IMG/VR virus record: IMGVR_UViG_3300045988_064633
Location: 16,129-80,128 of that record
Origin: a virus
Direction: 5' to 3' (one strand)
Length of the DNA stretch: 64,000 bases
In this document: positions 3,510 to 63,177 of the stretch, in pieces
Position numbering within the stretch: the first letter of the stretch is position 1
Layout of the letters: each line of letters begins with the position of its first letter
The notes under the pieces: model-generated
The model's database searches: none
What the model saw: only the letters and a program-made list of their open reading frames with translations
Told to the model about the DNA's origin: nothing
Position numbers and translations under genes: made by a program

Positions 3510-3581
3510 TCGGAAAGGCAGGAATCGAACCTGCGACACATAGCTTACAAGGCCATTGCTCTGCCACTGAGCTACATTCCA
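3510..3581 (-). tRNA. tRNA-Thr (anticodon UGU)
   Basis: Manual cloverleaf, 72 nt. Acceptor TGGAATG/CTTTCCG has one U-U mismatch. D stem GCTC/GAGC, anticodon loop CTTGTAA, T arm GCAGG-TTCGATT-CCTGC. Confidence 0.75.
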
Positions 3582-3699
3582 TCATGCTTTTCGGTCCAGA
3601 CACCAGACAACAGGATAAGCAATAACCTTTTCTCATGAGATAAATTCAGCCGAATCATAGACCGCCTGTATACAGACAGCATAATTCCGACCAAATTAA

Positions 3700-3771
3700 T
3701 TGCAGGAGACGGATTTGAACCGCCGTTCTCAAGGATATGAACCTTGCGAGATTCCGCTTCTCTATCCTGCC
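3700..3771 (-). tRNA. tRNA with CAU anticodon (Met or lysidine-Ile2)
   Basis: 72-nt cloverleaf. Acceptor GGCAGGA/TCCTGCA has a G1-A72 mismatch. D stem GAGA/TCTC, anticodon arm CAAGG-TTCATAT-CCTTG, T arm GGCGG-TTCAAAT-CCGTC. Confidence 0.75.
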
Positions 3772-3871
3772 TTGTGTGGATTTTCAGCGTATTTGTACCG
3801 GCAATCCACAAGCCGACTGTTTCTTACATCTCGGACAGCTTCCTCATATCCAATATTTACAGATTGGATAA

Positions 3872-3942
3872 TGGGAGAATGCGGAGTTGAACCGCCATGG
3901 TACTGTTAATCAGCCCTCTGCCCCTTATGGTATTATTCCCCC
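3872..3942 (-). tRNA. Degenerate tRNA-like element (anticodon position would read UUA)
   Basis: Good acceptor GGGGGAA/TTCTCCC and T arm GCGG-TTCAACT-CCGC. The D arm is weak and the anticodon stem is mismatched. Loop is GATTAAC with A at position 33. Confidence 0.35.
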
Positions 3943-4301
3943 AGAACCCGGAGATTGTTCCGGGTTAGCAATGATTTTTTCGTGTTATGCTTTCCACTAG
4001 GCAATTTTTCATAACTTGGACTATCGTATTTTTGCCAACCTGACGGCTTTTTGGTAACCGTGGTATGCTCCACGGAGTTGTTTCGGATATTATTATGCCT
4101 TTTGACTTTATGCTTCTTGAAAACTCCCTGCCATCAACGTGCACTTATGATGACTTATTGAAACTAAGAAACATTTATCGGACGGGAAATCAGATCAAGC
4201 ACAAGCCTATGCCGTTACATACCTTTGCTCATTCTGATTCACACACGCTCATCCGAAAGTTTTTTCTGCCCATAAAACGGATGGGTAGCATACGGAAGAA
4301 A

Positions 4302-4374
4302 TGGAAATTCTGAGATTCGAACTCAGGGCTTCCCGGTTATGAGCCGGGCGTTCTAACCGCTGAACTAAATTTCC
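4302..4374 (-). tRNA. tRNA with CAU anticodon (Met or lysidine-Ile2)
   Basis: Canonical 73-nt cloverleaf: GGAAATT/AATTTCC, D GTTC-AGCGGTTA-GAAC, anticodon arm CCCGG-CTCATAA-CCGGG, T arm CTGAG-TTCGAAT-CTCAG. Confidence 0.85.
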
Positions 4375-4608
4375 TGAGTAGAAGCAGTCTCCCGGATTGC
4401 AGATTTTGAGTTGATTTGCTTCTACTGTTGCGGTTCTTTGCCACCAGCCGCAACAAAGGTCATGGCTAAATAGAGTACCTCGTTTTTACGAGGATTCCCA
4501 TCCGGGACATTTGAATCCCCTTTAATCAGCTCCGTTGAGCTAGATGGGTTTTCGTCGGAGGGTCTATGTAAAATAAACCATTGCCAGGTACATGCGCAGC
4601 CCGGCAAA

Positions 4609-4680
4609 CTGGGCTAGCGGGATTCGAACCCGCACATGACGGAATCAAAGTCCGTTACCTTACCTTTTGGCGATAGCCCT
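4609..4680 (-). tRNA. tRNA-Gln (anticodon UUG)
   Basis: 72 nt with Gln-type 3-bp D stem GCC/GGT. Anticodon arm ACGGA-CTTTGAT-TCCGT, T arm GCGGG-TTCGAAT-CCCGC, unpaired 1-72 as in bacterial tRNA-Gln. Confidence 0.8.
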
Positions 4681-15804: not shown

Positions 15805-16645
15805 TTTCACCGCCTTGAATCTTTTTGATAAGTTCCTGTTTCATTGCATCCGCTATGTGTTCCCTGACTGATTCTTCAGGAAAGGGGATTTCCAATGATC
15901 GCTCTAAAATTCTGTTTGTAATGCGGTCATCATATTTCAATCGGGAAATAGGATAATTACTGGTGAAAATTGTGGTTTTCTTGTCCACATACCGACCATT
16001 GATGATTCCGTAGAATTTTTCATTAATCCAATCTTTCCCAGATTCCGCACCAAAATCGTCAATAATCAAAATATCCGCGTAAGTCAAATCACTAATCAGC
16101 TTATTCTCTGCGTTTTTCCCTCGTTCTCCCCATGTTGACTTTATCTCATCAAGAATTTTTAGGGATGTTGTGAATTTTACCGATTTCTGATGCTTTTCTA
16201 TCATCTCATTTGCCATGCTACATACAAGCCTTGTCTTTCCAGAGCCTTTAGTATTTGAATATATGTACAGCCCAATTCCCTGTTCCTGCATCTGTTGGAT
16301 ATTTTCGATCCAATATTTAACAGCTTTTGCCGCCTGTATGAATATTTCCTTACTTTCTGGAAGTTGATACACGCTGCTTTTCATATTTGAAAATCTGCAT
16401 TCCTTGTACATATCCGGCATTTCAGCAAATTGCAGCTGGTTCTGTAAGATCATCTTCTTTCTGATTCCGCAATGGCATTCTTCACAATATGGAACGCCAT
16501 TATCATCCCTTGACCATATCCAACCAGAACCGCCACAATCAGGACAATCAGTCTGCAAATGGAGTGTCTGAGATTTCGCTTCCTCCGCATTGATCGAATG
16601 GGATAAGCGGTTTGACATGCGCTTGAGCTGTTCTACCGGTTCCAT
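15788..16645 (-). CDS. DnaC/IstB-like AAA+ helicase loader with N-terminal zinc finger
   Basis: CPDCGGSGW...CEECHC, Walker A SNTKGSGKTR, Walker B ILIIDDFG. Confidence 0.75.
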   Translation of the reverse strand: MEPVEQLKRMSNRLSHSINAEEAKSQTLHLQTDCPDCGGSGWIWSRDDNGVPYCEECHCGIRKKMILQNQLQFAEMPDMYKECRFSNMKSSVYQLPESKEIFIQAAKAVKYWIENIQQMQEQGIGLYIYSNTKGSGKTRLVCSMANEMIEKHQKSVKFTTSLKILDEIKSTWGERGKNAENKLISDLTYADILIIDDFGAESGKDWINEKFYGIINGRYVDKKTTIFTSNYPISRLKYDDRITNRILERSLEIPFPEESVREHIADAMKQELIKKIQGGENGKQA

Positions 16646-30813: not shown

Positions 30814-31160
30814 ACTTCATCATCCTCCGGGAATCTAAACACAATGTTTGCCGGTTCGAATTTCATATCTGGGCTGTTAACCATTATTTTGATGATTCCA
30901 AAACCTCTTGCAGCCATTTTTATGCATTCCTCGTAATCGTCATCGCTCATTTCAACGTTTTGCGCAAGAAACATTCCTGCATACACTTTATGCAACGCTT
31001 TCATAGCTTTTTTGGCTTTTTCTTTTGTCAAATAACGAGCCATAACTGTTCCCTTTTCACCTACCATCGGCACGTATGCTCTTATGATATTTCCGGTTCT
31101 ACTTAATGAAGTGATTTCATAAGGAACGTCAATTTCTCCATTCTGACTAATTAATCTCAT
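30810..31160 (-). CDS. Hypothetical protein, paralog of 22694..22927
   Basis: See the 22694 entry; 4-nt overlap with the RT stop. Confidence 0.5.
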   Translation of the reverse strand: MRLISQNGEIDVPYEITSLSRTGNIIRAYVPMVGEKGTVMARYLTKEKAKKAMKALHKVYAGMFLAQNVEMSDDDYEECIKMAARGFGIIKIMVNSPDMKFEPANIVFRFPEDDEV

Positions 31161-32176
31161 TTTATCCTCCTTTTAATTTCCGAATCCATACTATGGCATA
31201 ATTTGATACAATTTCCATGAAGCATATGATTTTGGCATGCTCCGTATTTTTCATGGAATTTTTCTATCGACATCTTCCCGTCATTCACTACCCGTACCCA
31301 TCTTCGGATTTTTCTCTGTGTTTTTCTTTTCTTATCACCACGCAATTTTCTGATATATTTTCCTTCATCAGTCACGTAATGGTGAAAGCCCAGATAACAC
31401 AATCCCATGCGAAATGGTACAATTTGTGATTTAGGGTTTAGCTCCAATCCAAGGCTTTCAATCATCATTCGGATTGCTTCAAGAATTTCTCTGGCATCTT
31501 CTTTCGTTTTACAAATCACATAAAAATCATCGTTGTATCGTCCGTAATATGGATTTCCAAATTCAATCGTTATCATCTGATCCAGTGAATGTAAAAGCAA
31601 CAATGCGTACTTTTGATTTACCTGATTTCCTAATGGAAGCCCGGGATTACCTGTACTGTCAATAAACAAATGGTTCAACCAGACTGTAAAATCATCATCA
31701 AAGTAATAATCCAAAACATCTTTCATGATTTCATGGTCTATGCAATAAAAGTATTTGTGAATATCACATTTTACAATCCAACTATTCATTCCATTTCTTT
31801 TATAGAAATCCAACATTTGATTTCTTAACCCGTCCATTGCCATGTGTTGTCCTTTTCCTTGCTGTCCGGCAGTGTTCCATTTAATCAGGATATTTTCAAG
31901 TTTCGGTGTCAGAATGTAATCAGAAAAGCATCTCTGCACTACTTTGTCCTTAAATGCACATGATTCTATCGTGCGCTCTTTTGGCTCATGAATTTGAAAT
32001 TTATTATACGGATTTATGGTATACGTTTGGCTTTCCAATTGTTCCTTCAAGAGATGAATGCCTTCAAGAGACAAATTAGAAAATCTTGCAGTACCTGAAT
32101 TAAATTTCTTACCGCTCTTAACCTTCTTGTAAGAACGATATAAATTTTCAAAATTTGTAACAATTTCTTTTTCCAT
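31157..32176 (-). CDS. Diversity-generating retroelement (DGR) reverse transcriptase
   Basis: RT motifs CDIHKYFYCIDH, LPLGNQVNQ (DGR-type GNxxxQ block), YNDD; immediately downstream of a TR with A-specific mismatches to two VRs. Confidence 0.9.
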   Translation of the reverse strand: MEKEIVTNFENLYRSYKKVKSGKKFNSGTARFSNLSLEGIHLLKEQLESQTYTINPYNKFQIHEPKERTIESCAFKDKVVQRCFSDYILTPKLENILIKWNTAGQQGKGQHMAMDGLRNQMLDFYKRNGMNSWIVKCDIHKYFYCIDHEIMKDVLDYYFDDDFTVWLNHLFIDSTGNPGLPLGNQVNQKYALLLLHSLDQMITIEFGNPYYGRYNDDFYVICKTKEDAREILEAIRMMIESLGLELNPKSQIVPFRMGLCYLGFHHYVTDEGKYIRKLRGDKKRKTQRKIRRWVRVVNDGKMSIEKFHEKYGACQNHMLHGNCIKLCHSMDSEIKRRIK

Positions 32177-51708: not shown

Positions 51709-54700
51709 TTAATTCTCCTTTTCTATATTGAACTTTTCATAGAGCTGATTAATTAGTTTCTCCTGTCGGTCAAGCTGTTCTTTCTGGCTTTTTATCATTG
51801 CAAACATAGCAGGTATCATGATACGTTCGTTCCAGTTCTCAGCTTTGCCGTCTATGTGGTCAACTGCCAGAGGAAAATACATATCCACATCTTCTGCTAT
51901 GAACATTGGAAATTCTGCGTCTGCGCGTTCATCTCCTTTTGCAAGGTAGCCTTCTTTATACCGTGCCATTATCGGTTCGATGTTGTACAGATTCTCAATA
52001 AATTCTTCTGGCAACGAAGCTCCGAGGATTTTGTAGCGTTTGGAGGAAGATGAACTCATGTATACTAGATTGTTGTAAATCCTTAAATAATTTCCAGATG
52101 AAAGTGTGTCTAAATTGAAAATCTGAAATTTATCCGTTCCATCGGAAAAAGGTTCTGTTCCGCAAATTATGTTAAAGCCCCCATCGGCAACAAGACCATT
52201 TCCATAAGCACTCAAGGTGACCCCATTAATGCTTATTTCTTCATTTTCTGCGTCCAGTATTATAATGCCGTTAGGAGACTTTAATTGTCCTGTCTCACTA
52301 TCTAGAACCCACCCGGCAATATTTCCAGTGTTAGCACTTAATTCACCAGTAAAAGTTCCTTTTGCTGAATTCAAACTGCCGGAAAACGTTCCTTTTGTAA
52401 AATTCACTCCTGTGTTGTCAATATATCCAACTTGATTACCGGCTGAATCTCTAATAACTAATTTTCCATTGCCATTATTTACACCGCCCAATGTCAATTC
52501 ACCGCCAAGCGCTGCACTGAAGCTGATATACAGTTGACCATTCTTGTAGTACAGGCCTTTCCATGCACCATCATTTGATAGTATTTCTACGATTTGCGAT
52601 TGTGTCAGATTGTCCACATCAATTACTACCGCAACACTCTGCATATCCATCAATGTTGTAGTTCCACCGGACGCATATAATTTACATCTAACATTTGTCA
52701 CATCTCTCGGAATACCGACAGTTGAACCATTAGAACTTGCTACTGTCTGACCAGATCCATTTGTCAAAATAGAATACAAATAGTGTGTCACGGTATCCTC
52801 ATCGGTTGAACTAGTATAAATGGTATTCCAAGTGTTTCCGTCAGCAGTCTCTTCAACAACGAATCTGCCTTTATAAGGCACTCTAGTAGCTGACTTTCCG
52901 TCACGATAATACGCTTTAAATGTTATAAAGTTTGGACTAATTGTCTTGTCAGAGCCACGTTTCAAGACGTTACATGATGGCTCAACCATGTATGTTCTAC
53001 CAGGTTCACCATCTTTTCCATCTTCTCCCTTTTTCTGCTTAGAAATCGTGAATCTTTTTGTTACTGACAGATTGCTGAGATATGTTGCTCTGATGTCTAT
53101 CCATCCATTGTCTGCCGATAGCCCAGTAACATTGTAGATATGTGTTGCATCACTCCAAGAGCCTGTGATACTGTCGGATTTTGTGATTGTATAACTACAA
53201 TCGTCTGTAATATCCGATGAGCCATACATTACAGTAGCTTTGGTAGATACCTGTGGAAATACTGCGATATTGCCATCTGCATCAGCCGTAATCGTCTGCA
53301 TTTCGTTTGATAGCTGCAAAGTCATGTTTTTGGCAAGAGCTGCTGTTTCAAGGGCTTTGTTTGCTGTGGTATCATCGGTATATTTATTCAGTTTCTTCCA
53401 ATCAGATGATGCATACACACTTCCTTTTGCTCTTGCTACAACACAAGTGAGGATATCTCCGCCGTCTTGAGACCATAAATCTCCGATATCATACGGCGGT
53501 GAAGGCTGTATAACAAACGTCCTTCTCTTGCCGTCTGCGGTATCTTGCGCTTTCTCAGCTTGTGCAAGTGCTTTGGAAATGTCGTTGTCTTGAATCATCT
53601 GCCATTTCCATGTTGCACCGTCCTGCATAAACCGATATGCGTAGCCAGTACTCTTCCAGTAAAAAAGATCGCCTTCATGTTTTTTACGTTCTTCTGTGCT
53701 TGTCCACTCAGAAGCCGGTTTGTTCTGCAAAGACGGTTCGTAATCATAAAAGAAGGACTCAATCTGTCCATCTATCTGTGCTTGTAAGCCGGAAAGCGAA
53801 TAGGTTACAGTATTTGCATAATCCGCAAGTTTACCATCCGAATATGCTTTGCTCTCTGCCAAGCTATCAGATATAGCTTTTGTAGCCGTCTTTCCACCAA
53901 TCTGTACATGATCTCCGCTGATGATTACTTTTTTAGTATCCATATCAACTTGGAAGATGATATTTCCACTCTTATCCTTTACGGTAATCGCACCTGTGTT
54001 AATCCAGTCAGCATTTAATCCTACGGCTGTGAGGATTCTTACAATCGTATCACCATCTACTGTCATACCACCATTCCATGTCTGTCCACCATCTGTAGAC
54101 ACTCCCCATGCCTCAGAAGTCATTTTCCAAATTGCCTGAGATTCTGCCAGAGTTGGTTTGTCGTGTAAATAAAAGATTTTGCTTCCATTTTCCTGTGGCT
54201 CAACAGTAGTATAAACTCCTGTGGCTGAATCAATTCTTTTTCCAAATTCTTCAAGAGCTTTTTCTCTCTCGGTTTTTTCCTGCTTAACCATATTTCTTGC
54301 AGTAACAAATGCCTGCGTCGCCTGGGAATATTGGGTGCTGCTATTTTTAGCAGCGCTTTTGGCATTACAAGCTATCTTCTGACCGGATCCCGGTTTCAAT
54401 GTAGTTGTGGTAAGTAGCGATGTGTATATTTTTCCATTTCTATCCACAATAATCAGTGAATCTCCGGCTTCCAGAGCCACATCTGTAGGGCACTCGGATT
54501 CAAATGGTCTAAATCTCATGCCAACGCATTTCTCGGCAATCATTGAAGCAATCGTATGGCCATCGCCAACACGAATTAATTTATTACCAGAAATTCCAAG
54601 TACATATCCCTCTGTACCAACCATGTAAGTTTGCGGATTATCAGAAGAGGATTCGCTGTATTCAGTTACTTTCACGCCTGTGATTACTACATCTGTATGA

Positions 54701-55641
54701 TGCGGAGTAAAACCATAGGTGGTTTCTATTTCAGAAATGTTACCTTTTTCGTCAGTTGCAAAAAGCCTCAATATGCCATCATTTTCCAGAAATGTTCCGT
54801 TATTTGCCGATAAAATACCATTTGCACTGGATAATTCAAGCGAGATATTGCTATCATCTTGCGTTTTGAGAACTCCAAGATCATTAATAATGAGTTCTTC
54901 TTCATTGATGCTGCTATACCAACCGATGCACAATCTGCCATATTCATCGCATCTCATCCACTGACAGCCAATCTGTGCAACCCACTGTAGAACCTGGCGA
55001 AATGTTAAAGCTTCGTCATTTGGACGATTCTGCACGATATAATCATCTCTGTCAAATGATGTTGTTTGCAAAGTAACCCCACATACCTCGCAGGCATCTC
55101 GTACAATCTGCCCTCTGGTTGCCGGATACTTCAATTTGCTGTCTGAATAGTTCCGGTCAAACTTCCGCATATTATCTTCGCACGTAAGGTCTATGGTCAC
55201 CGTTTCGTCTTCCGGCTGTTCAATAACTGTCACTGTACAAATACGTGTTTTTTCAATAACCGCATTTTTATGAACTATGATTGTATCACCGGTTGAATCC
55301 AGTATTTGTTCTCCAGCTGAATCTAACAGTTCACTTGTATCCTCATTTTCAATCTGTAATCCAACATAACATATGACTTCTGCTCCCTCAAAATCGTAAT
55401 CGGAGTACTCACCGTCAAAATTATTAATGCTAAGATTCAATACATTGATGATTGCAGAACCGATGTCAAAGCTACTATCATTAGATACGGAATCTTCGAA
55501 TTCCATTCCGTTTTGCCACAGATTGGCACTGGTCAGATTGAGTACAGTTCCGTCTGTAAGTGTGATATCTGCATACTTGAGGTACTGCACGTCCATTCCG
55601 TTCTTGACTTTTTCTTTCCATCTGTTAGATAATTTTCTCAT
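51709..55641 (-). CDS. Large tail-associated structural protein / tail fibre with C-terminal S74 intramolecular chaperone domain
   Basis: 1310 aa following the Dit-like gene; C-terminal SSSSKRYKILG...IAEDVDMYFPLAV...WNERIMIPAMFAMIKSQKEQ resembles Peptidase_S74. Confidence 0.85.
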   Translation of the reverse strand: MRKLSNRWKEKVKNGMDVQYLKYADITLTDGTVLNLTSANLWQNGMEFEDSVSNDSSFDIGSAIINVLNLSINNFDGEYSDYDFEGAEVICYVGLQIENEDTSELLDSAGEQILDSTGDTIIVHKNAVIEKTRICTVTVIEQPEDETVTIDLTCEDNMRKFDRNYSDSKLKYPATRGQIVRDACEVCGVTLQTTSFDRDDYIVQNRPNDEALTFRQVLQWVAQIGCQWMRCDEYGRLCIGWYSSINEEELIINDLGVLKTQDDSNISLELSSANGILSANNGTFLENDGILRLFATDEKGNISEIETTYGFTPHHTDVVITGVKVTEYSESSSDNPQTYMVGTEGYVLGISGNKLIRVGDGHTIASMIAEKCVGMRFRPFESECPTDVALEAGDSLIIVDRNGKIYTSLLTTTTLKPGSGQKIACNAKSAAKNSSTQYSQATQAFVTARNMVKQEKTEREKALEEFGKRIDSATGVYTTVEPQENGSKIFYLHDKPTLAESQAIWKMTSEAWGVSTDGGQTWNGGMTVDGDTIVRILTAVGLNADWINTGAITVKDKSGNIIFQVDMDTKKVIISGDHVQIGGKTATKAISDSLAESKAYSDGKLADYANTVTYSLSGLQAQIDGQIESFFYDYEPSLQNKPASEWTSTEERKKHEGDLFYWKSTGYAYRFMQDGATWKWQMIQDNDISKALAQAEKAQDTADGKRRTFVIQPSPPYDIGDLWSQDGGDILTCVVARAKGSVYASSDWKKLNKYTDDTTANKALETAALAKNMTLQLSNEMQTITADADGNIAVFPQVSTKATVMYGSSDITDDCSYTITKSDSITGSWSDATHIYNVTGLSADNGWIDIRATYLSNLSVTKRFTISKQKKGEDGKDGEPGRTYMVEPSCNVLKRGSDKTISPNFITFKAYYRDGKSATRVPYKGRFVVEETADGNTWNTIYTSSTDEDTVTHYLYSILTNGSGQTVASSNGSTVGIPRDVTNVRCKLYASGGTTTLMDMQSVAVVIDVDNLTQSQIVEILSNDGAWKGLYYKNGQLYISFSAALGGELTLGGVNNGNGKLVIRDSAGNQVGYIDNTGVNFTKGTFSGSLNSAKGTFTGELSANTGNIAGWVLDSETGQLKSPNGIIILDAENEEISINGVTLSAYGNGLVADGGFNIICGTEPFSDGTDKFQIFNLDTLSSGNYLRIYNNLVYMSSSSSKRYKILGASLPEEFIENLYNIEPIMARYKEGYLAKGDERADAEFPMFIAEDVDMYFPLAVDHIDGKAENWNERIMIPAMFAMIKSQKEQLDRQEKLINQLYEKFNIEKEN

Positions 55642-56874: not shown

Positions 56875-57942
56875 TCATTCCTCCCGTTTCTGTTTCACGC
56901 GGTTATACAAAATGTTCTGTGTCTTCTCCGTGAAGAACAGCCAGATATGATAATCGCAGTCCATATTGTTGTTCTTCCCAATGTTGGAACTGAAATATTC
57001 GTCCATCATGTCCAGATAATATTGCGGCTCCTCGTCCTCTTCGACTATTCCGTCTTTCACCATATCCAAGTCAGCATTTCGAATCATACTCAGAAACTGG
57101 TCAAGATCATTGGCATAAACCATCGGGTGTCGTTCTCCCCGATACTGTTTGAATTTTTCAAAGAACTGTTTGACCAATGCCATAGTTAGACAGATGTCAT
57201 GGTCTTTCAAAATATCTTCTTTGTCCCCGTACAGAGAATTAAATCCATTGTACAGGATTGTCGGTAGTTCTTCGTCTTTGTAATCGACAGAGCGATTATT
57301 TTTCGCATGTGCGTACCGTTCCTGCTTCTGCTCTTTCGTTCTAGGTGGTATATTATTAATATTTATATTTATATTATTATTAGGAGCAGAAGTCTTTACT
57401 CCTTTACCAGACGATGGTAAAGTCTTTTCCTCTGTACTTGATAAAGTACAGTCTTTATCTGTATTCTCTGTATAGTGTTCTCTGTAAGTAGTCTCTGGTA
57501 ATGCTTCTGTCGAATTGTCGGTGTGCATTTCGTCATTTTGTCTATTTGCACACGGACAATCTGACGTTGAAATTTCAACAGTATCTTTTAAGACTTTTTC
57601 AAGAACATCTTCGTCAATAGAATACCATTTAGTTCTGTCCCTACTATCCTTGTTATAATTGCCTGTAATAACAAGACCGGAATTTACCAAATTTTTAAAT
57701 GCTCTTTCAACAGTTTTTGTTGACCACCATGGAAAATTTTCTTTTCTCCAATTTTCCATGGTATTGTAGCTCCAATACTTTCCGTCGTGATAATTTCTTT
57801 TTAACTTTTCATTAATTTCAAGCCAATAATAAATTTGTCTTAAAACAACAGCTTCATTAAGTCCTATTCTTACTGCAAGTTCGGAATTTATAACAAGATT
57901 ACTTTGAGTAGATAAAATAAGATCTGATAATTTTTTATTCAT
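56875..57942 (-). CDS. Winged-helix protein resembling replication-initiator/DnaD-like N-terminal domains (cassette gene 1)
   Basis: LAVRIGLNEAVVLRQIYYWL...YWSYNTMENWRKENFPWWSTKTVERAFKNLVNSGLVI; Asn/Ile low-complexity linker; start after GGAGGT. Confidence 0.55.
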   Translation of the reverse strand: MNKKLSDLILSTQSNLVINSELAVRIGLNEAVVLRQIYYWLEINEKLKRNYHDGKYWSYNTMENWRKENFPWWSTKTVERAFKNLVNSGLVITGNYNKDSRDRTKWYSIDEDVLEKVLKDTVEISTSDCPCANRQNDEMHTDNSTEALPETTYREHYTENTDKDCTLSSTEEKTLPSSGKGVKTSAPNNNINININNIPPRTKEQKQERYAHAKNNRSVDYKDEELPTILYNGFNSLYGDKEDILKDHDICLTMALVKQFFEKFKQYRGERHPMVYANDLDQFLSMIRNADLDMVKDGIVEEDEEPQYYLDMMDEYFSSNIGKNNNMDCDYHIWLFFTEKTQNILYNRVKQKREE

Positions 57943-58167
57943 AGTAGATAACCTCCATGTCGTTAATGTGTGACTGCCTTGTAGCCACAGATCCATGATT
58001 TATAAAAACAACAGGCAGGTGCATCATGGAATTGCACTTGTCCCCCGTCGGGTTAGCCTGTTGGTTTTACCAAACAAAAAAAGAGCACACAAAAGAATCG
58101 TGAGGCTTTTCCCTCGTTTCATCTTTAGTGTGCTCTCTTCAACAAATGTAATAACTATTTCTCGTTT

Positions 58168-58196
58168 AGTATATCAAATTCTACCGCAAAAATCAA
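58168..58196 (-). promoter_or_regulatory. Candidate promoter TTGATT-17-TATACT for the cassette
   Basis: Minus strand TTGATT (58196-58191), 17 nt, TATACT (58173-58168); overlaps the tape-measure stop codon. Confidence 0.4.
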
Positions 58197-61100
58197 TATG
58201 CCGGGGACGGATTCATGCGGTAATCTGTGTTGTTCTGAGCCTTTGTGACAATTCGCGCCAGTTCACGCTCGTTCACTTTGATGCTGTTCATGATGTACTC
58301 TGGTGAAGAACCGCCAAAACCACCATTGTTCATCAAAGCAGTGACTACGCCACGCTCGACAGCTTCCATGATCTCATCTTTCGTAAGTCCCATGTTGCCG
58401 TCATAGCCGGACATGATGCTGTCGGCAATGGATTTCATGGCTTTTCGATTTTCCAAAGGAAGAACAGCTTCCTGTCCTGCTTCGCCTACACCAATGACAG
58501 ATGCATTTTTGAACAAACCACCTTTTGCATACCAGTTCGGACTATAGACAGGGGTTGAACTGGTACCGCCGTTCCCAAGGCTATGTGTTTTCCACTGAGA
58601 AATATAATACGAAAGCGTAGGCATTCTCACGGATTTCATTCCATTTCTTAATGATTGAGCCGCATTATGGCCAATGCTGTACATATCACTGAATGCGCTG
58701 CGAATAGTTCTCATAAAGCTATTTAAAGAGCTATCCATACTCTTTGACATACTTCCAGAAACATAAGAAGAGATATCTCTTCCGATATTCTCCCATTTCT
58801 TATAAGCAATGTTGTACTGACTTTGGAAATGGCTTGTTACAGATTTGTCCATATTTCCAAGTTCTGTACTTACGGCATTTTTCATCTCCCTTGCCTTTAA
58901 TGTCGCTTCTCTGGAAGAATTTCCCCATGAGCTAGTAGTTGTAGTTTCCATGCCTTTCATGTAAGTATCAGCCTGTTTCTGGATTTCCGAGAAATCATCT
59001 GTGGCATTTTTTGCCATTTGATTTGTGGCTGTTTGAGTGTCTCTTGATGCCTGTCCAACTGATGTTGATATAGTCTGCTGTGCTCCAACAATATTCTTGT
59101 CTACTGCTGATTTTGTGGCTAACGTAGCGTTCGGGAAGTCTTTTGCAAGTTTGTTGTTCAGTTCATCGAGTGGAACTCCTGCATTCTTCAATGAAGTGTA
59201 GACTGTATCTAATGCATCTTTGGTATTTGTGATAGTTCCACCATTATTAGCATTATCAAGTTCGTCCATGGCTGTTTTGTATGAACCACCAAAATCGTCA
59301 GATTTCAGACTCAATAAGTATAGCTCGTCTTTCAAATCCGAAATACTGATTTTTGATGTATCGAATTTACCAGCTGCTTCTGACACGCCATCTCCAAGTG
59401 CGGAGATTTGATTAGTCATACCCTCAACAAATTCAGCCGATACACCGGCCTGTGCGCCATACTGCTCAAGAGCTGTTCTAGCCTGATCGGATGAAACGCC
59501 ATACTCTTTCAATTTTTCAACCATATCAGAGTACATTTCATCGTGAGTTTTTCCAAGTTCTTCATCCTTCTCAATAAGCTGCCACAACGCTTCCGATTGA
59601 TCGTTTGTAAGATTTGCTACATCAGTCAGCTGTGTTGCGTAATCATGGAGATAACCACCATACTGTGTAGTCATTCCATTACCACCTTGCATGGTCTCAA
59701 AAAGTCCTGCTAATTTCTTGGTAAGTAATACTGCACCATCTACTGCAAGAGCAATTCCACCACCAGTTGCAACAAGTGAGCCTAACGATGTCCCAAGAGC
59801 CGGAATAGTTGTTGAGACTGCTTCTGTGATTGCGGGACTCAGCATACCTCGTACAGCTTTAGAAAGATTTCCAAATACAGTATCACCTGTAAAAAACTTA
59901 GTAATTGTATCAACTAATGGCATGAGCTTATTACCAATAGCAAAAACAGCCATTGCCTGAACAAATGTGCCGGCAGATGTTGTTCCAAGTCCTTCCCAGA
60001 TTCCACCAAGAACGTCTCCGATAACCGTAAGTAACTGTGCAAGATGTTTTCCCCAGTCAATTTCACTGAGGAATACGCCTACATTGTGTCCAAACGCTTC
60101 CCAATCGACACCCCTTGCAATCTCAATAAGAGATGTGAGCAATTTGTTGATAAATTCTTCTAACTTTTGACCGTTTTTTCGCCAGTTGAATTCTTGCATG
60201 AATGTGGTGATTCCATTTGTAATGTTATCAACAAGATTTTCCCAATTAAAGCTTGCTGTAAATGAAGCCAATGTATCAAAAGCACCATTCAATCCAGTTG
60301 CAAGTGTATAAGCAATTTCACCGAAATTAATCTTTTCAAAGATTCCGTTCAAGCCTTCTGCGACAGCTGTTCCAATTTCTCCGTACTGGAGATTTTCTAC
60401 GAAGCCTGAGAAAATATCCCATCCACGCATAAAGGAATTTCCAAGCAGATTGCCGAAGTTTTCCCAATTCACTTCACGAACAAGGCCAGTGATACCATTG
60501 GCAAATTTAGAACCAAGGTTCTTCCAGTCGATTCCTTCCAGAAGTTGGTTTGCAGTATTTACAATAGTATTCATACCAGCTCCAACGGTACGTCCCATCA
60601 AATCCCAGTTGATATTATCAACAAGGCTGTTGAAAGTCTGGGTGAACGCACTGGTGAATTTAGTGATGTACGGGCCTACGTTATTCCAGTTAATGAAATC
60701 ATAAAGCTTTTGCATTCCCCAGTTGATGCCATCAGCCATGATTTTTCCAAGGCCTTTCCAGTCTTTTCTCTTAAAGGCATTTACAATGGCATCTGCCATT
60801 TCATTTGCCCTGTTGGACATTTTCTTGAATGCTTCGTCCCATGCTTTTTGATATGCAGATAAAGCATCGTTCAAAGCTGCATCAAGTGCTTTGATATGCC
60901 CCAAACCGCCTTTTCCAGAGCCAGAAGATGGATTACTTGTACTACCAGAATCAGAATTGTCATTAAGCTGATTCAGTTCATCAAATGAAAGAACTGACAA
61001 TGTTTTTTTGAGCTTTTTGGCATTCTTATTTGCAGTATCAATAGAATCACTAGCATTATCCATATCATCCGCAATGTTACTTGTATCTACAGAAATACCG

Positions 61101-61298
61101 CCAGTAGATGATACAAAGTTAGACAGTTTGATTCCAAGAAGTTTTGCAATATAAGCGAACATTCTTTGTATTGCGATTACTATTGCATTGATATATGGAA
61201 GTACTGTTTGCAGTATAGGAATGAATAAGGAACCTATTGTTCTACCAAGGGATGCAAAGTTAGATTGAAGCATACGAATCTGATTTGCCGGTTGATTT
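58193..61298 (-). CDS. Tail tape-measure protein, 3-prime exon/segment
   Basis: Begins in the conserved NQPANQIRMLQSNFASLGRTIGSLFIP core (TP901-type TMP); Gly/Ala-rich helical repeats follow. Confidence 0.85.
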
Positions 61299-61621
61299 CG
61301 ATTTGTTATCGTAAGGCTTTTTATCCTCACTTCTGCATTATTACAATGCATGTCCAGCGTACCTTTTTACCACAGGCTCTGCACCTGTACCGTCCGATAG
61401 TGATGCCTCTTGGGAAGATTATATTCTGTAGTATCTCAACTACAGTTTCACTTCCTACGCGTTGCGGTTGACTATGCTTTTAATCATAGCCTTCACTCTC
61501 TGATTACCGTTGCAAACGGCTTTCCAGCTTATTTCATCACTAATAACTCATATCCTACTTGACGGTTTCGATATGAGCGACTTGCCAGTAGCTACGCATT
61601 TATCACGCTACTGACCTATTT
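61299..61621 (-). ncRNA. Candidate ORF-less self-splicing (group I-like) intron interrupting the tape-measure gene
   Basis: 323 nt. Removing it joins ...WADLSET-AT|A-NQPANQIRML in frame, with U before the 5-prime junction and G as the last insert base. Dense hairpins and long-range complementarities. Confidence 0.5.
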
Positions 61622-63177
61622 ATCGTTTCTGACAAATCAGCCCATGCATACTTAGAGTTGTTCAGCAAGATAATCGTTCTCAAAATCGTTTTATCTGCCT
61701 GAGACAACTTCGATATGCTGGTATTAATCCCAAGATTATACAGTTCCTGTTGCATGTTGGCATTACGGATATTAATGCCGTACTTATCCATAGCGCGGCT
61801 CATACCAGTCAAGCCAGATGCCATGTCCTGCCATACATCCTCGAAGTCCATATTTCTTACAGAAGCAAGATCTGCACCAATCATAGTAAGTGCATTAGAC
61901 AATTTTAAGGCAGTCTCTGATGTATCGCCCATAGATGATGCCATCTGTGCAAATGTTGCCTGATACTGCATTGTTTTTTCTGGGTCAAGTCCAAGACTAG
62001 CGGTATTGGTTCTAGCCAGTTCACCAGTATCTGAAATTTCGAATCCTGTCAGTTTCTGTGAAAGCTGTTTTGCCCTTTCCTGGAATGAATTTGCATATGC
62101 TTCAACGGATTTTATGCCACTTTTTTTCCATTCGTCAGTGTTGATTCCTTCTGCCACCTGATTGAACGCAGAATTGAAATAGTTCAGAGTCTCTACATAG
62201 TTCATTGCGGATTCTACTGGCGATGTCAGAACATCTAATGCTCTTTTTACGAGGAAACCTTTGGCGTAAAAAGCACTCAACTTATCAGTTACTGAACTCA
62301 TAGGGTTTGACAATCTTCTTATTTTTTCACCAGTTTCAGAAGATGCATTTCCAATACCTGCGATTGCAGATACAGCTTTTCCGCCTAAAGAAATAGCTTT
62401 TGAAGCAAATTTTTGAAAAGCATTTGTCAGCCCATTGATTACAGTACTTGCTTTTGAACCTAACGAAGAAAGCGTGTTAAATGAATTCGAAACGCTACTT
62501 GTGGCACGCCCTACTTTGCTTCCAGACGATGCTAATACTGCAAGAGCTTCTGTCATTCTTATTGTGCTCGAACTGATATCTGGTGCACTTTTCATTACGT
62601 CAAAAAACTTCAAAACCTCTTGTGCGAGAGTTGATAATTGACTTGCAGTCTTTCCAGTTTTATCTCCTGCACTAGCTAATTTTCCAAGAGAAGTAATAAA
62701 AGCATTGGTGGATGCTGATACTTCGCTCATAGAGCCTAATTTAGTAGCCGCATTATTTAAACCTGTCGCAAGATTCGGAAGTTCCTTTGATACATTGCCG
62801 ATATACTGTCCTGTGCCGGCAAGTTTAGCTATAGCGGTTGTGAACCGGCTAACGCTCGGAGAAACATCTGGAATAGCATCAAGTTTCTGCATCTCGGTAA
62901 GAATTTTACCTAATTTCCCTGTATCAAACTGACTGAAATCGGATTTTCCAAGACGATTGATAGCGTTTATAGCCGCATTCAATCCATTTGCTTTAAAATT
63001 CACGCTGCCTAAACTTTTTAAAGAATTGGAAAAATTATTTAACCGGCTTATGTCAAGATTTCCAATGGCAGTGTTTAATGTATCTAATTTTTTTACAAGG
63101 TTATTAATAGACCGCACCGCCTGAGTTGTGCTACTCTCTATTTGTATATTGAGGGTATCTATGGTATTATCGGCCAT
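61622..63177 (-). CDS. Tail tape-measure protein, 5-prime exon/segment
   Basis: Helical repeat-rich 518 codons ending ...YAWADLSETI; the track ORF runs 5 codons into the insert before a stop. Confidence 0.85.

Follow-up and report, generated by a model that had tools for sequence, protein, structure and literature searches.

A 323-nt insert in a phage tape-measure gene as a probable group I intron without an open reading frame

The split tape-measure gene and its empty sites

The stretch of DNA analysed here, referred to as the window, covers 64,000 nt of the IMG/VR virus record IMGVR_UViG_3300045988_064633 (positions 16,129 to 80,128) and contains a tape-measure gene that gene callers divide into two open reading frames (ORFs). 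All coordinates of this gene and its insert are on the minus strand of the window. ORF 63177..61603 encodes 524 amino acids (aa) with the C-terminal end ...YAWADLSETINRSVA, and ORF 61351..58193 encodes 1052 aa and begins MHCNNAEVRIKSLTITNRNQPANQIRML, its opening being MHCNNAEVRIKSLTITNR followed by QPANQIRML.... Excision of the 323 nt from 61299 to 61621 joins ...ACGAU to AAAUCAACC in frame and gives a product of 1553 aa that reads ...SETINQPANQIRML... across the junction (junction peptide, LSETINQPANQIR; joined exon nucleotides, GUCAGAAACGAU-AAAUCAACCGGC), and only the tape-measure-like part of ORF 61351..58193 enters this fusion. The last base of exon 1 is a U (61622), the last base of the insert is a G (61299) and a UGA stop follows early in the insert (Table 1), as is common for group I introns in protein-coding genes (PMC3984707). 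Both the insert and exon 2 start with AAAU, which leaves the boundary ambiguous by 4 nt from sequence alone; we prefer the boundary given here because it is the sole placement with both a U at position -1 and a terminal G. We suggest that the insert is, with little room for doubt, an ORF-less self-splicing group I intron of subgroup IA with IA1-like features.

The profile matches and homologues identify one gene and not two, and the two ORFs of the gene callers are an annotation artefact. A Pfam search gives the interrupted protein no name; PHROGs profiles name it as a tape measure, and these profiles abut at the break, with position 359 of phrog_1535 ending the match in the upstream ORF and starting that in exon 2, and positions 195 and 198 of phrog_28918 flanking the break. 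In the spliced product each of the two profiles matches in a single continuous stretch. Among database homologues, P0001 (90% identical), P0003, P0006 and P0011 read without interruption through ...T-INQPANQ..., and the TINQPANQ stretch around the break is the most conserved part of the tape-measure alignment. The initial annotation had described the two ORFs as one tape-measure core whose frame is restored by removing 61299-61621, and had pointed to the exon-final U, the insert-final G and a stop five codons into the insert; all of this is borne out. It had also named two separately translated tape-measure-like proteins with the same break in homologues as an outcome speaking against an intron; the four homologues instead read through.

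The DNA encoding P0001 (locus L052) is 93% identical to the window on both sides of the insertion point, lacks exactly the 323 nt and reads ACGAU-CAAU-CAACC. The comparison with intron-less genes that had been proposed initially was extended to 80 closely related tape-measure loci from viral contigs, and three allelic states were found at the insertion site: the site is empty in 48 of the 80 loci, about 26 carry the present intron at 322-323 nt, and five (L141, L145, L151, L161 and L163) carry an insert of 1253 or 1249 nt at the identical position. The first base of exon 2 (window 61298) is linked to these states: it is A (AUA, Ile) in every intron-bearing allele, whether the intron is ORF-less or encodes a GIY-YIG endonuclease, and C or U in all 48 empty alleles (loci L091-L170 examined), the difference being synonymous. 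Separately, 12 nt upstream most empty alleles read GATTTA and not GATTTG.

Table 1. Features of the split tape-measure gene and of the proposed intron RNA, in window coordinates
Feature	Position	Strand	Remarks
Exon 1 of the tape-measure gene	61622..63177	-	Codons 1-518 plus 2 nt; ORF; phrog_1535 match up to position 359
P1 exon strand CGAU	61622..61625	-	Ends in the splice-site U (61622); pairs with GUCG 61578-61581
Proposed group I intron, 323 nt, no ORF of its own	61299..61621	-	Same stretch missing from L052 and 48 related loci
P1a extension hairpin GUCAGUAGC/GCUACUGGC	61584..61615	-	93.5% paired; 8 of 9 pairs changed on both sides
P1a loop GUGAUAAAUGCGUA, 14 nt	61593..61606	-	Conserved as GYRAUMAAUGCRUA across insertion sites
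UGA stop in the frame of exon 1	61603..61605	-	Five codons inside the intron
Internal guide sequence GUCG	61578..61581	-	Directly 5' of P2; placed alike in all family members and the GIY-YIG sister
P2 hairpin CUCAUAUC/GAUAUGAG	61547..61577	-	95.6% paired; compensatory changes in 8 of 8 pairs
P3 5' strand UAGUGAUG	61535..61542	-	Helix 85% paired; 4 pairs changed on both sides
P4-P5-P6 domain	61470..61527	-	Helices 91-97% paired; compensatory changes
J6/7 AACCGCAAC and P7 5' strand GCGUA	61456..61469	-	P7 100% paired, 17 of 17 sequences
P7.1/P7.1a, between P7 and P3'	61413..61455	-	GGAAG/CUUCC around CUGUAG/CUACAG; 100% and 92.6% paired; covariation
P3 3' strand CAUCACUA	61398..61405	-	Partner of 61535-61542; also in the minimum-free-energy fold
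P8 hairpin UACAGG/CCUGUG	61371..61389	-	90% paired; compensatory changes in 5 of 6 pairs
J8/7 GUAAAAAGG and P7 3' strand UACGC	61357..61370	-	Nearly invariant in the intron family
P9 hairpin UGCAUU/AAUGCA	61334..61350	-	Helices 97-100% paired
P9.1 hairpin GUGAGG/CCUUAC, loop AUAAAAAG	61311..61330	-	100% paired; compensatory changes in 5 of 6 pairs
3' tail GAUAACAAAUCG	61299..61310	-	Ends in the terminal G (omega G) at 61299
Exon 2 of the tape-measure gene	58193..61298	-	1 nt plus 1034 codons and stop; phrog_1535 match from position 359

RNA structure and the internal guide sequence

A secondary structure was derived from the window sequence and projected onto an alignment of 17 distinct relatives (A2). 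In this alignment 93.3% of the cells are paired, compared with 28-45% when the partners are slid by 1-3 columns, and 56 of the 80 pairs have changed on both sides in a compensatory manner; none of 500 shuffles matched the observed values. The helices follow the canonical group I order (P1, P1a, P2, P3, P4, P5, P6, P7, P7.1, P7.1a, P8, P9, P9.1), and the core order P3-P4-P5-P6-P7-P3'-P8-P7'-P9 is present with covariation support and includes the pseudoknot of P3 and P7, the latter formed by 61456-61460 and 61357-61361. The unconstrained minimum-free-energy fold has -92.1 kcal/mol (z = -3.2) and recovers most of the helices independently, which argues that the insert is structured beyond chance. 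Within the P4-P6 domain, P4 is CUGG/UCAG, P5 is GCCGUU/AACGGU and P6 is GGCUAUG/CAUAGUC; J4/5 (AAA) and J5/4 (AA) are both rich in A, a feature expected where the G.U wobble pair is recognised. In P7 a G-C pair has become A-U on both strands in L023 and KLEB27-3. The GAUAACA...G tail is invariant in all relatives at every insertion site, and so is the terminal G in 17 of 17 aligned members and in distant relatives. P9 contains the AUG that gene callers use as the start of ORF 58193..61351, a start that is spurious.

At every insertion site the four bases just 5' of P2 complement the last bases of the upstream exon, and they therefore behave as an internal guide sequence. P1 was tabulated by anchoring on P2, since MAFFT misplaced the exon bases. 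The three bases at the end of the exon and a G-N-N guide covary across independent insertion sites: the window tape-measure site has exon CGAU with guide GUCG, one other site has ACU with GGU, and five sites, as well as KLEB27-3 and pBWB404, have GGU with GCC. In the window allele the exon U at 61622 forms a wobble pair with the guide G at 61581, and family members almost always follow an exon U. In L023 (~405-734) the exon GGGC lies opposite the guide ACCC, so that the last exon base is apparently a C and a C.A pair replaces U.G; the junction at this locus was placed from the reading frame only.

The local stems listed in the initial annotation all exist and covary in relatives: CAGUAGC/GCUACUG is P1a, CUCAUAUC/GAUAUGAG is P2, CCGUU/AACGG is P5, CUGUAG/CUACAG is P7.1a and GCAUU/AAUGC is P9. 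P1 with its guide and P7, which could not be placed at that stage, are assigned here as CGAU/GUCG and GCGUA/UACGC, respectively. Of the two long-range pairings suggested, UAGUGAUG with CAUCACUA is P3 and covaries; the other, CGUAGG with CCUUACG (CGTAGG and CCTTACG in the DNA), is complementary in 93% of the cells, but its covariation is no better than that of shuffles (266/500). We reject it as a native helix because it lacks excess covariation and because it excludes P7 (GCGUA/UACGC) and P9.1 (GUGAGG/CCUUAC), both of which are 100% paired with compensatory changes.

Two further pairings were discarded. The P1a loop sequence AAUGCGUAG echoes the P7 5' strand AACGCGUAG and was considered as an alternative partner of P7'; it is ruled out because in L018, L020 and L024 the loop becomes GCAUA while P7' is unchanged. 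The conserved P1a loop may form a tertiary contact. The minimum-free-energy fold also pairs CGAU with a 3'-terminal AUCG, a complementarity that is absent in other family members, and we regard it as an allele-specific chance match.

An intron lineage of phage genes and the assignment of the insert

The insert has relatives in many phages. Its last 35-75 nt match gaps without annotation in many unrelated phages (Bacillus, Staphylococcus, Clostridioides and crAss-like), and the 20-nt motif GGUAAAAAGGUAYGCUGGAC, which consists of J8/7 and P7' with the preceding G and the following UGGAC, is present in 47 viral contigs and two genome bins (one Clostridia, one Oscillospiraceae). Genome bins of Clostridia and Oscillospiraceae contain the closest intron relatives. 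Copies of the motif precede at least seven different downstream exons, with the KLEB27-3 copy in addition. The insertion sites comprise the present tape-measure site (...ACGAU, then the intron), two other tape-measure-like genes (interrupted at ...AEAFN/YMAMAGW and ...GQSRA/LYQYGIDTT), two major-tail-like genes (MAKLSTLG/VTFGYGIETT and ...ISTLG/AIFSYAVETT), a gene that lacks a functional name (L054, ...KMVFLV/TPPHLMNY), a metallophosphatase-like gene and, in Bacillus phage KLEB27-3 (L001 ~1908-2573), the Walker A codons of DnaB (RPNVG/KSG). In the KLEB27-3 record the intron is unannotated and only the second DnaB half is labelled helicase. ORF-less members are all 312-328 nt long and all end in ...GAUAACA(N2-4)G. 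In class B members the P1a loop contains a double-LAGLIDADG ORF of 351 aa (LAGLIDADG_1 at 26.1 bits, exceeding the cut-off), and L028 is an ORF-less form of the class B intron. With nhmmer the insert was found as a sole copy in the window (E = 3.5e-105), and a looser core pattern, GGTAAAAAGGNNNNNTGGAC, gave only chance matches to coding sequence in viral contigs and zero new members.

A covariance model of the lineage (R1) was built from the family of the insert and searched over the window and the retrieved loci. Its match on the window spans 61299-61627, including 6 nt of exon, and scores 385 bits. The model also finds pBWB404 TMP-IVS3b (87 bits, E about 1e-23), Clostridium phage CB452P1 (83 bits), Staphylococcus phage PT1-1 (80 bits), the GIY-YIG sister introns in L141 and L161 (62-64 bits) and the I-BasI DNA polymerase intron of Bacillus phage Eyuki (E about 1e-6, mainly through a shared 3' module). 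PT1-1 (L002) has three group I introns just upstream of its tape-measure gene (2259-2569, 3677-3902 and 3952-4286), two of them seen by the Rfam group I intron model RF00028 and one only by the lineage model; all three are annotated as small hypothetical ORFs. A second R1 match of 89.6 bits lies elsewhere in L028 (4020-4293), and L009 has a second gap in the metallophosphatase-like gene (2673-2960); class B phages seemingly carry more than one insert.

These comparisons place the insert in a phage intron lineage that has already been described in tape-measure genes. Tourasse & Kolsto (2008) reported group I introns, several of them without endonucleases, at three tape-measure positions in prophages of the Bacillus cereus group, among them TMP-IVS3b, an IA1 intron in the tape-measure gene of a prophage on plasmid pBWB404 of Bacillus (weihenstephanensis/mycoides) KBAB4 (PMC2504315). 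The insert matches pBWB404 inside this split gene, and the two cores align from J6/7 to the 3' end with homologous J6/7-P7, P7.1, CCAMGAG, J8/7-P7', P9.1 and GAUAACA...G tail and with about 78% identity over the last ~70 nt. TMP-IVS3b likewise lacks an endonuclease, and its guide is placed as in the window intron. It differs in its position within an unrelated tape-measure sequence (...IFG/TMYEDQG), in its length of about 231 nt with reduced P1a, P2 and P4-P6 regions, in its P7 (GCAUA/UAUGC) and in its host, which is Bacillus and not gut Clostridia.

The sister intron at the same site (L141 247-1499, 1253 nt) has the junction ACGAU, intron ending in G, AAAUCAACC, uses the guide GUCG and shares the linked A as first base of exon 2; its 3' half is homologous to that of the window intron (nhmmer 6e-10). 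In contrast to the window intron, it encodes an endonuclease with a GIY-YIG domain (39.7 bits) and two NUMOD1 domains, its core is closer to that of IVS3b, it is without the 20-nt J8/7-P7' motif and it has a plausible P10 (AAAU with AUUU). The match in Eyuki lies between the I-BasI endonuclease gene and exon 2 of the DNA polymerase, inside a classical group I intron of the Bastille/SPO1 type, a class that according to Landthaler and Shub reportedly self-splices. This intron shares the 3'-terminal module (P9.1-like hairpin, AUAAARAG loop and GAUAACA tail; 93.5% identity over 31 nt) and resembles the window intron in its P7'-UGAC context, but has a canonical IA2-type core (P7 GACUA/UAGUC), an HNH endonuclease and another host gene. 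The P9.1 module is common to many phage introns, including the Bastille-type DNA polymerase intron. The IA2 introns of T4 td, nrdB and sunY also interrupt protein-coding phage genes and have an early in-frame stop and P7.x elements (partly PMC3984707); no sequence similarity to them was detected, their P7.1/P7.2 arrangement is unlike that of the window intron, and they carry or once carried endonuclease ORFs.

The group I assignment made in the initial annotation is thus supported by the P1-P9 topology with its P3/P7 pseudoknot, the covariation between exon and guide, the invariant terminal G, the endonuclease-bearing relatives and the homology to a published group I intron, together with the empty sites. 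Peripheral extensions of the P7.1 type define subgroup IA (PMC3984707). Within IA, the label IA1 rather than IA2 is suggested by the homology to IVS3b, which its authors class as IA1, by the P7.1/P7.1a arrangement and by the Michel-Westhof scheme.

Several observations weigh against this assignment. A search with RF00028 gave no intron match in the whole window at the gathering threshold or in the insert region at E <= 10, and no Rfam family matched the insert at E <= 1. P1 of the window allele has only 3-4 exon pairs, and no convincing P10, the pairing of the guide region with the beginning of exon 2, was found for this allele. Neither the spliced-junction sequence nor any DNA with an AUA junction was found in the viral and metagenome assemblies searched; these are mostly DNA, and the lack of a spliced junction says little. 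We know of no member of this exact lineage that has been shown to splice, and the report of Tourasse & Kolsto contains no reverse-transcription PCR for tape-measure introns (PMC2504315). The RF00028 search had been proposed in the initial annotation, with lack of a covariance-model hit counting against an intron. Its negative outcome is uninformative because the model also misses published or accepted relatives: the I-BasI intron of Eyuki reaches 42.8 bits, below the threshold of 50, and nothing is found for pBWB404 TMP-IVS3b, for the GIY-YIG sister intron or for class B members. The negative reflects a limit in the sensitivity of RF00028 for a lineage with P7 GCGUA/UACGC, not GACUA/UAGUC, and with these controls it does not refute a group I intron.

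The insert could alternatively be a structured intergenic spacer that is not removed, with the tape-measure function divided over two separately translated genes. Public gene calls do list both halves as separate proteins (P0002, P0005), and translation of the second ORF could begin at the AUG at 61351, which is preceded by a weak AAGG. However, this AUG sits in the P9 hairpin and is lost in close variants such as L013 and L018 (GGAC-UGCAUU), and the region separating the ORFs shows the compensatory changes of an RNA and does not evolve as coding sequence. The 93%-identical allele and 48 related loci are uninterrupted, the break falls inside the most conserved tape-measure motif, and homologous inserts split DnaB within Walker A, where two half-proteins are implausible. 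We therefore regard two separate genes as very unlikely. That the insert is a group I intron which has decayed and lost splicing, leaving a tape-measure pseudogene in a defective prophage, is to our minds just as hard to credit: the lack of a homing endonuclease, of an Rfam match and of experimental evidence for splicing would agree with decay, whereas about 26 contigs keep the intron at 322-323 nt, both exons of the window are open over 518 and 1034 codons, J6/7, P7, J8/7 and the terminal G are invariant, the helices are kept by compensatory changes, and the host contigs of 40-120 kb are filed in IMG/VR as viral.

A small non-autonomous transposon, a translational bypass like that of T4 gene 60 and a group II intron were also considered. 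The insert is flanked by a 4-nt AAAU repeat, in which one could see a target-site duplication or a take-off and a landing site. All three were rejected: neither size nor topology fits, flanking repeats are not consistently present, and their joint probability is close to nil. A group II intron would be longer than 323 nt, and no Rfam family matches the insert at E <= 1; known bypass gaps are about 50 nt; and AAAU is not repeated at other insertion sites of the family or in same-site variants such as L031 (UAAC... and .../AGAAC). The topology and the guide covariation are specific to group I introns.

Proposed splicing, mobility and the surrounding window

By combining the structure with the established chemistry of group I splicing (PMC3984707), we suggest the following course for the intron. 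Folding of the pre-mRNA would bring the CGAU at the end of exon 1 and the guide GUCG together in P1 and present the U at 61622; a free guanosine bound in P7 would attack after this U, and the terminal G at 61299 would then replace the guanosine in P7. The freed exon 1 would attack after G 61299 and thereby ligate ...ACGAU to AAAUCAACC..., and the spliced mRNA would encode a single tape-measure protein of 1553 aa. The UGA five codons into the intron probably halts ribosomes and lets the ribozyme fold, a role that has been proposed for early in-frame stops (PMC3984707).

The 323 nt encode no homing endonuclease, and the read-throughs of 6 and 18 codons lie within RNA helices; any mobility of the window intron would thus be in trans. 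The intron is probably kept by vertical descent and recombination, and we infer that it may also be copied into empty alleles cut by the GIY-YIG endonuclease of the sister intron. A precedent for homing in trans is T4 mobE/I-TevIII (PMC2790892). The pattern at the first base of exon 2 and the upstream base fit either co-conversion during homing or empty sites that resist the endonuclease. Taken further, the two related introns would compete for one tape-measure site, the ORF-less one hitch-hiking on the GIY-YIG cuts of its sister during co-infection, with the first base of exon 2 marking co-conversion or resistant sites and the lineage being widespread and under-annotated in gut phages; we put this forward as a tentative scenario that we think is rather less likely to hold than to fail.

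The main value of these results lies in annotation. Tape-measure length sets tail length, and this tape-measure gene is publicly listed as two unrelated ORFs, one of which has a spurious N-terminus translated from the intron. In dozens of gut-phage contigs, introns of this lineage interrupt tape-measure, major-tail, DnaB and other genes without being noticed, and the standard Rfam model does not detect them; a lineage model such as R1 would correct the split gene calls. In principle nothing here is new, as prophage tape-measure genes with group I introns have been known since 2008. The site with its three allelic states and the linked exon polymorphism provides a natural system in which to study trans-homing and intron competition.

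The window as a whole is that of a phage, with genes for a tail protein, an endolysin, RecT, an SbcC-like protein, a methyltransferase, a serine integrase and a reverse transcriptase, and with four tRNAs. Between the tape-measure stop and the gene for a large tail protein (51709-55641) lie an int-alpA RNA (RF02996, 52 bits; 57993-58063, minus strand) and, directly downstream of it, an ORF for a DnaD-like helicase loader or replication initiator (56875-57996, minus strand; phrog_6493 at 2e-31). The GC content drops to 0.35 at 56875-58063, and this segment resembles a cassette inserted in the middle of the tail module. The reverse transcriptase ORF (339 aa; 31157-32176, minus strand; phrog_1423 at 2e-86) may belong to a diversity-generating retroelement or a retron. 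The four tRNAs form a cluster at 3510-4680 (minus strand), with Rfam tRNA scores of 53-74 bits.

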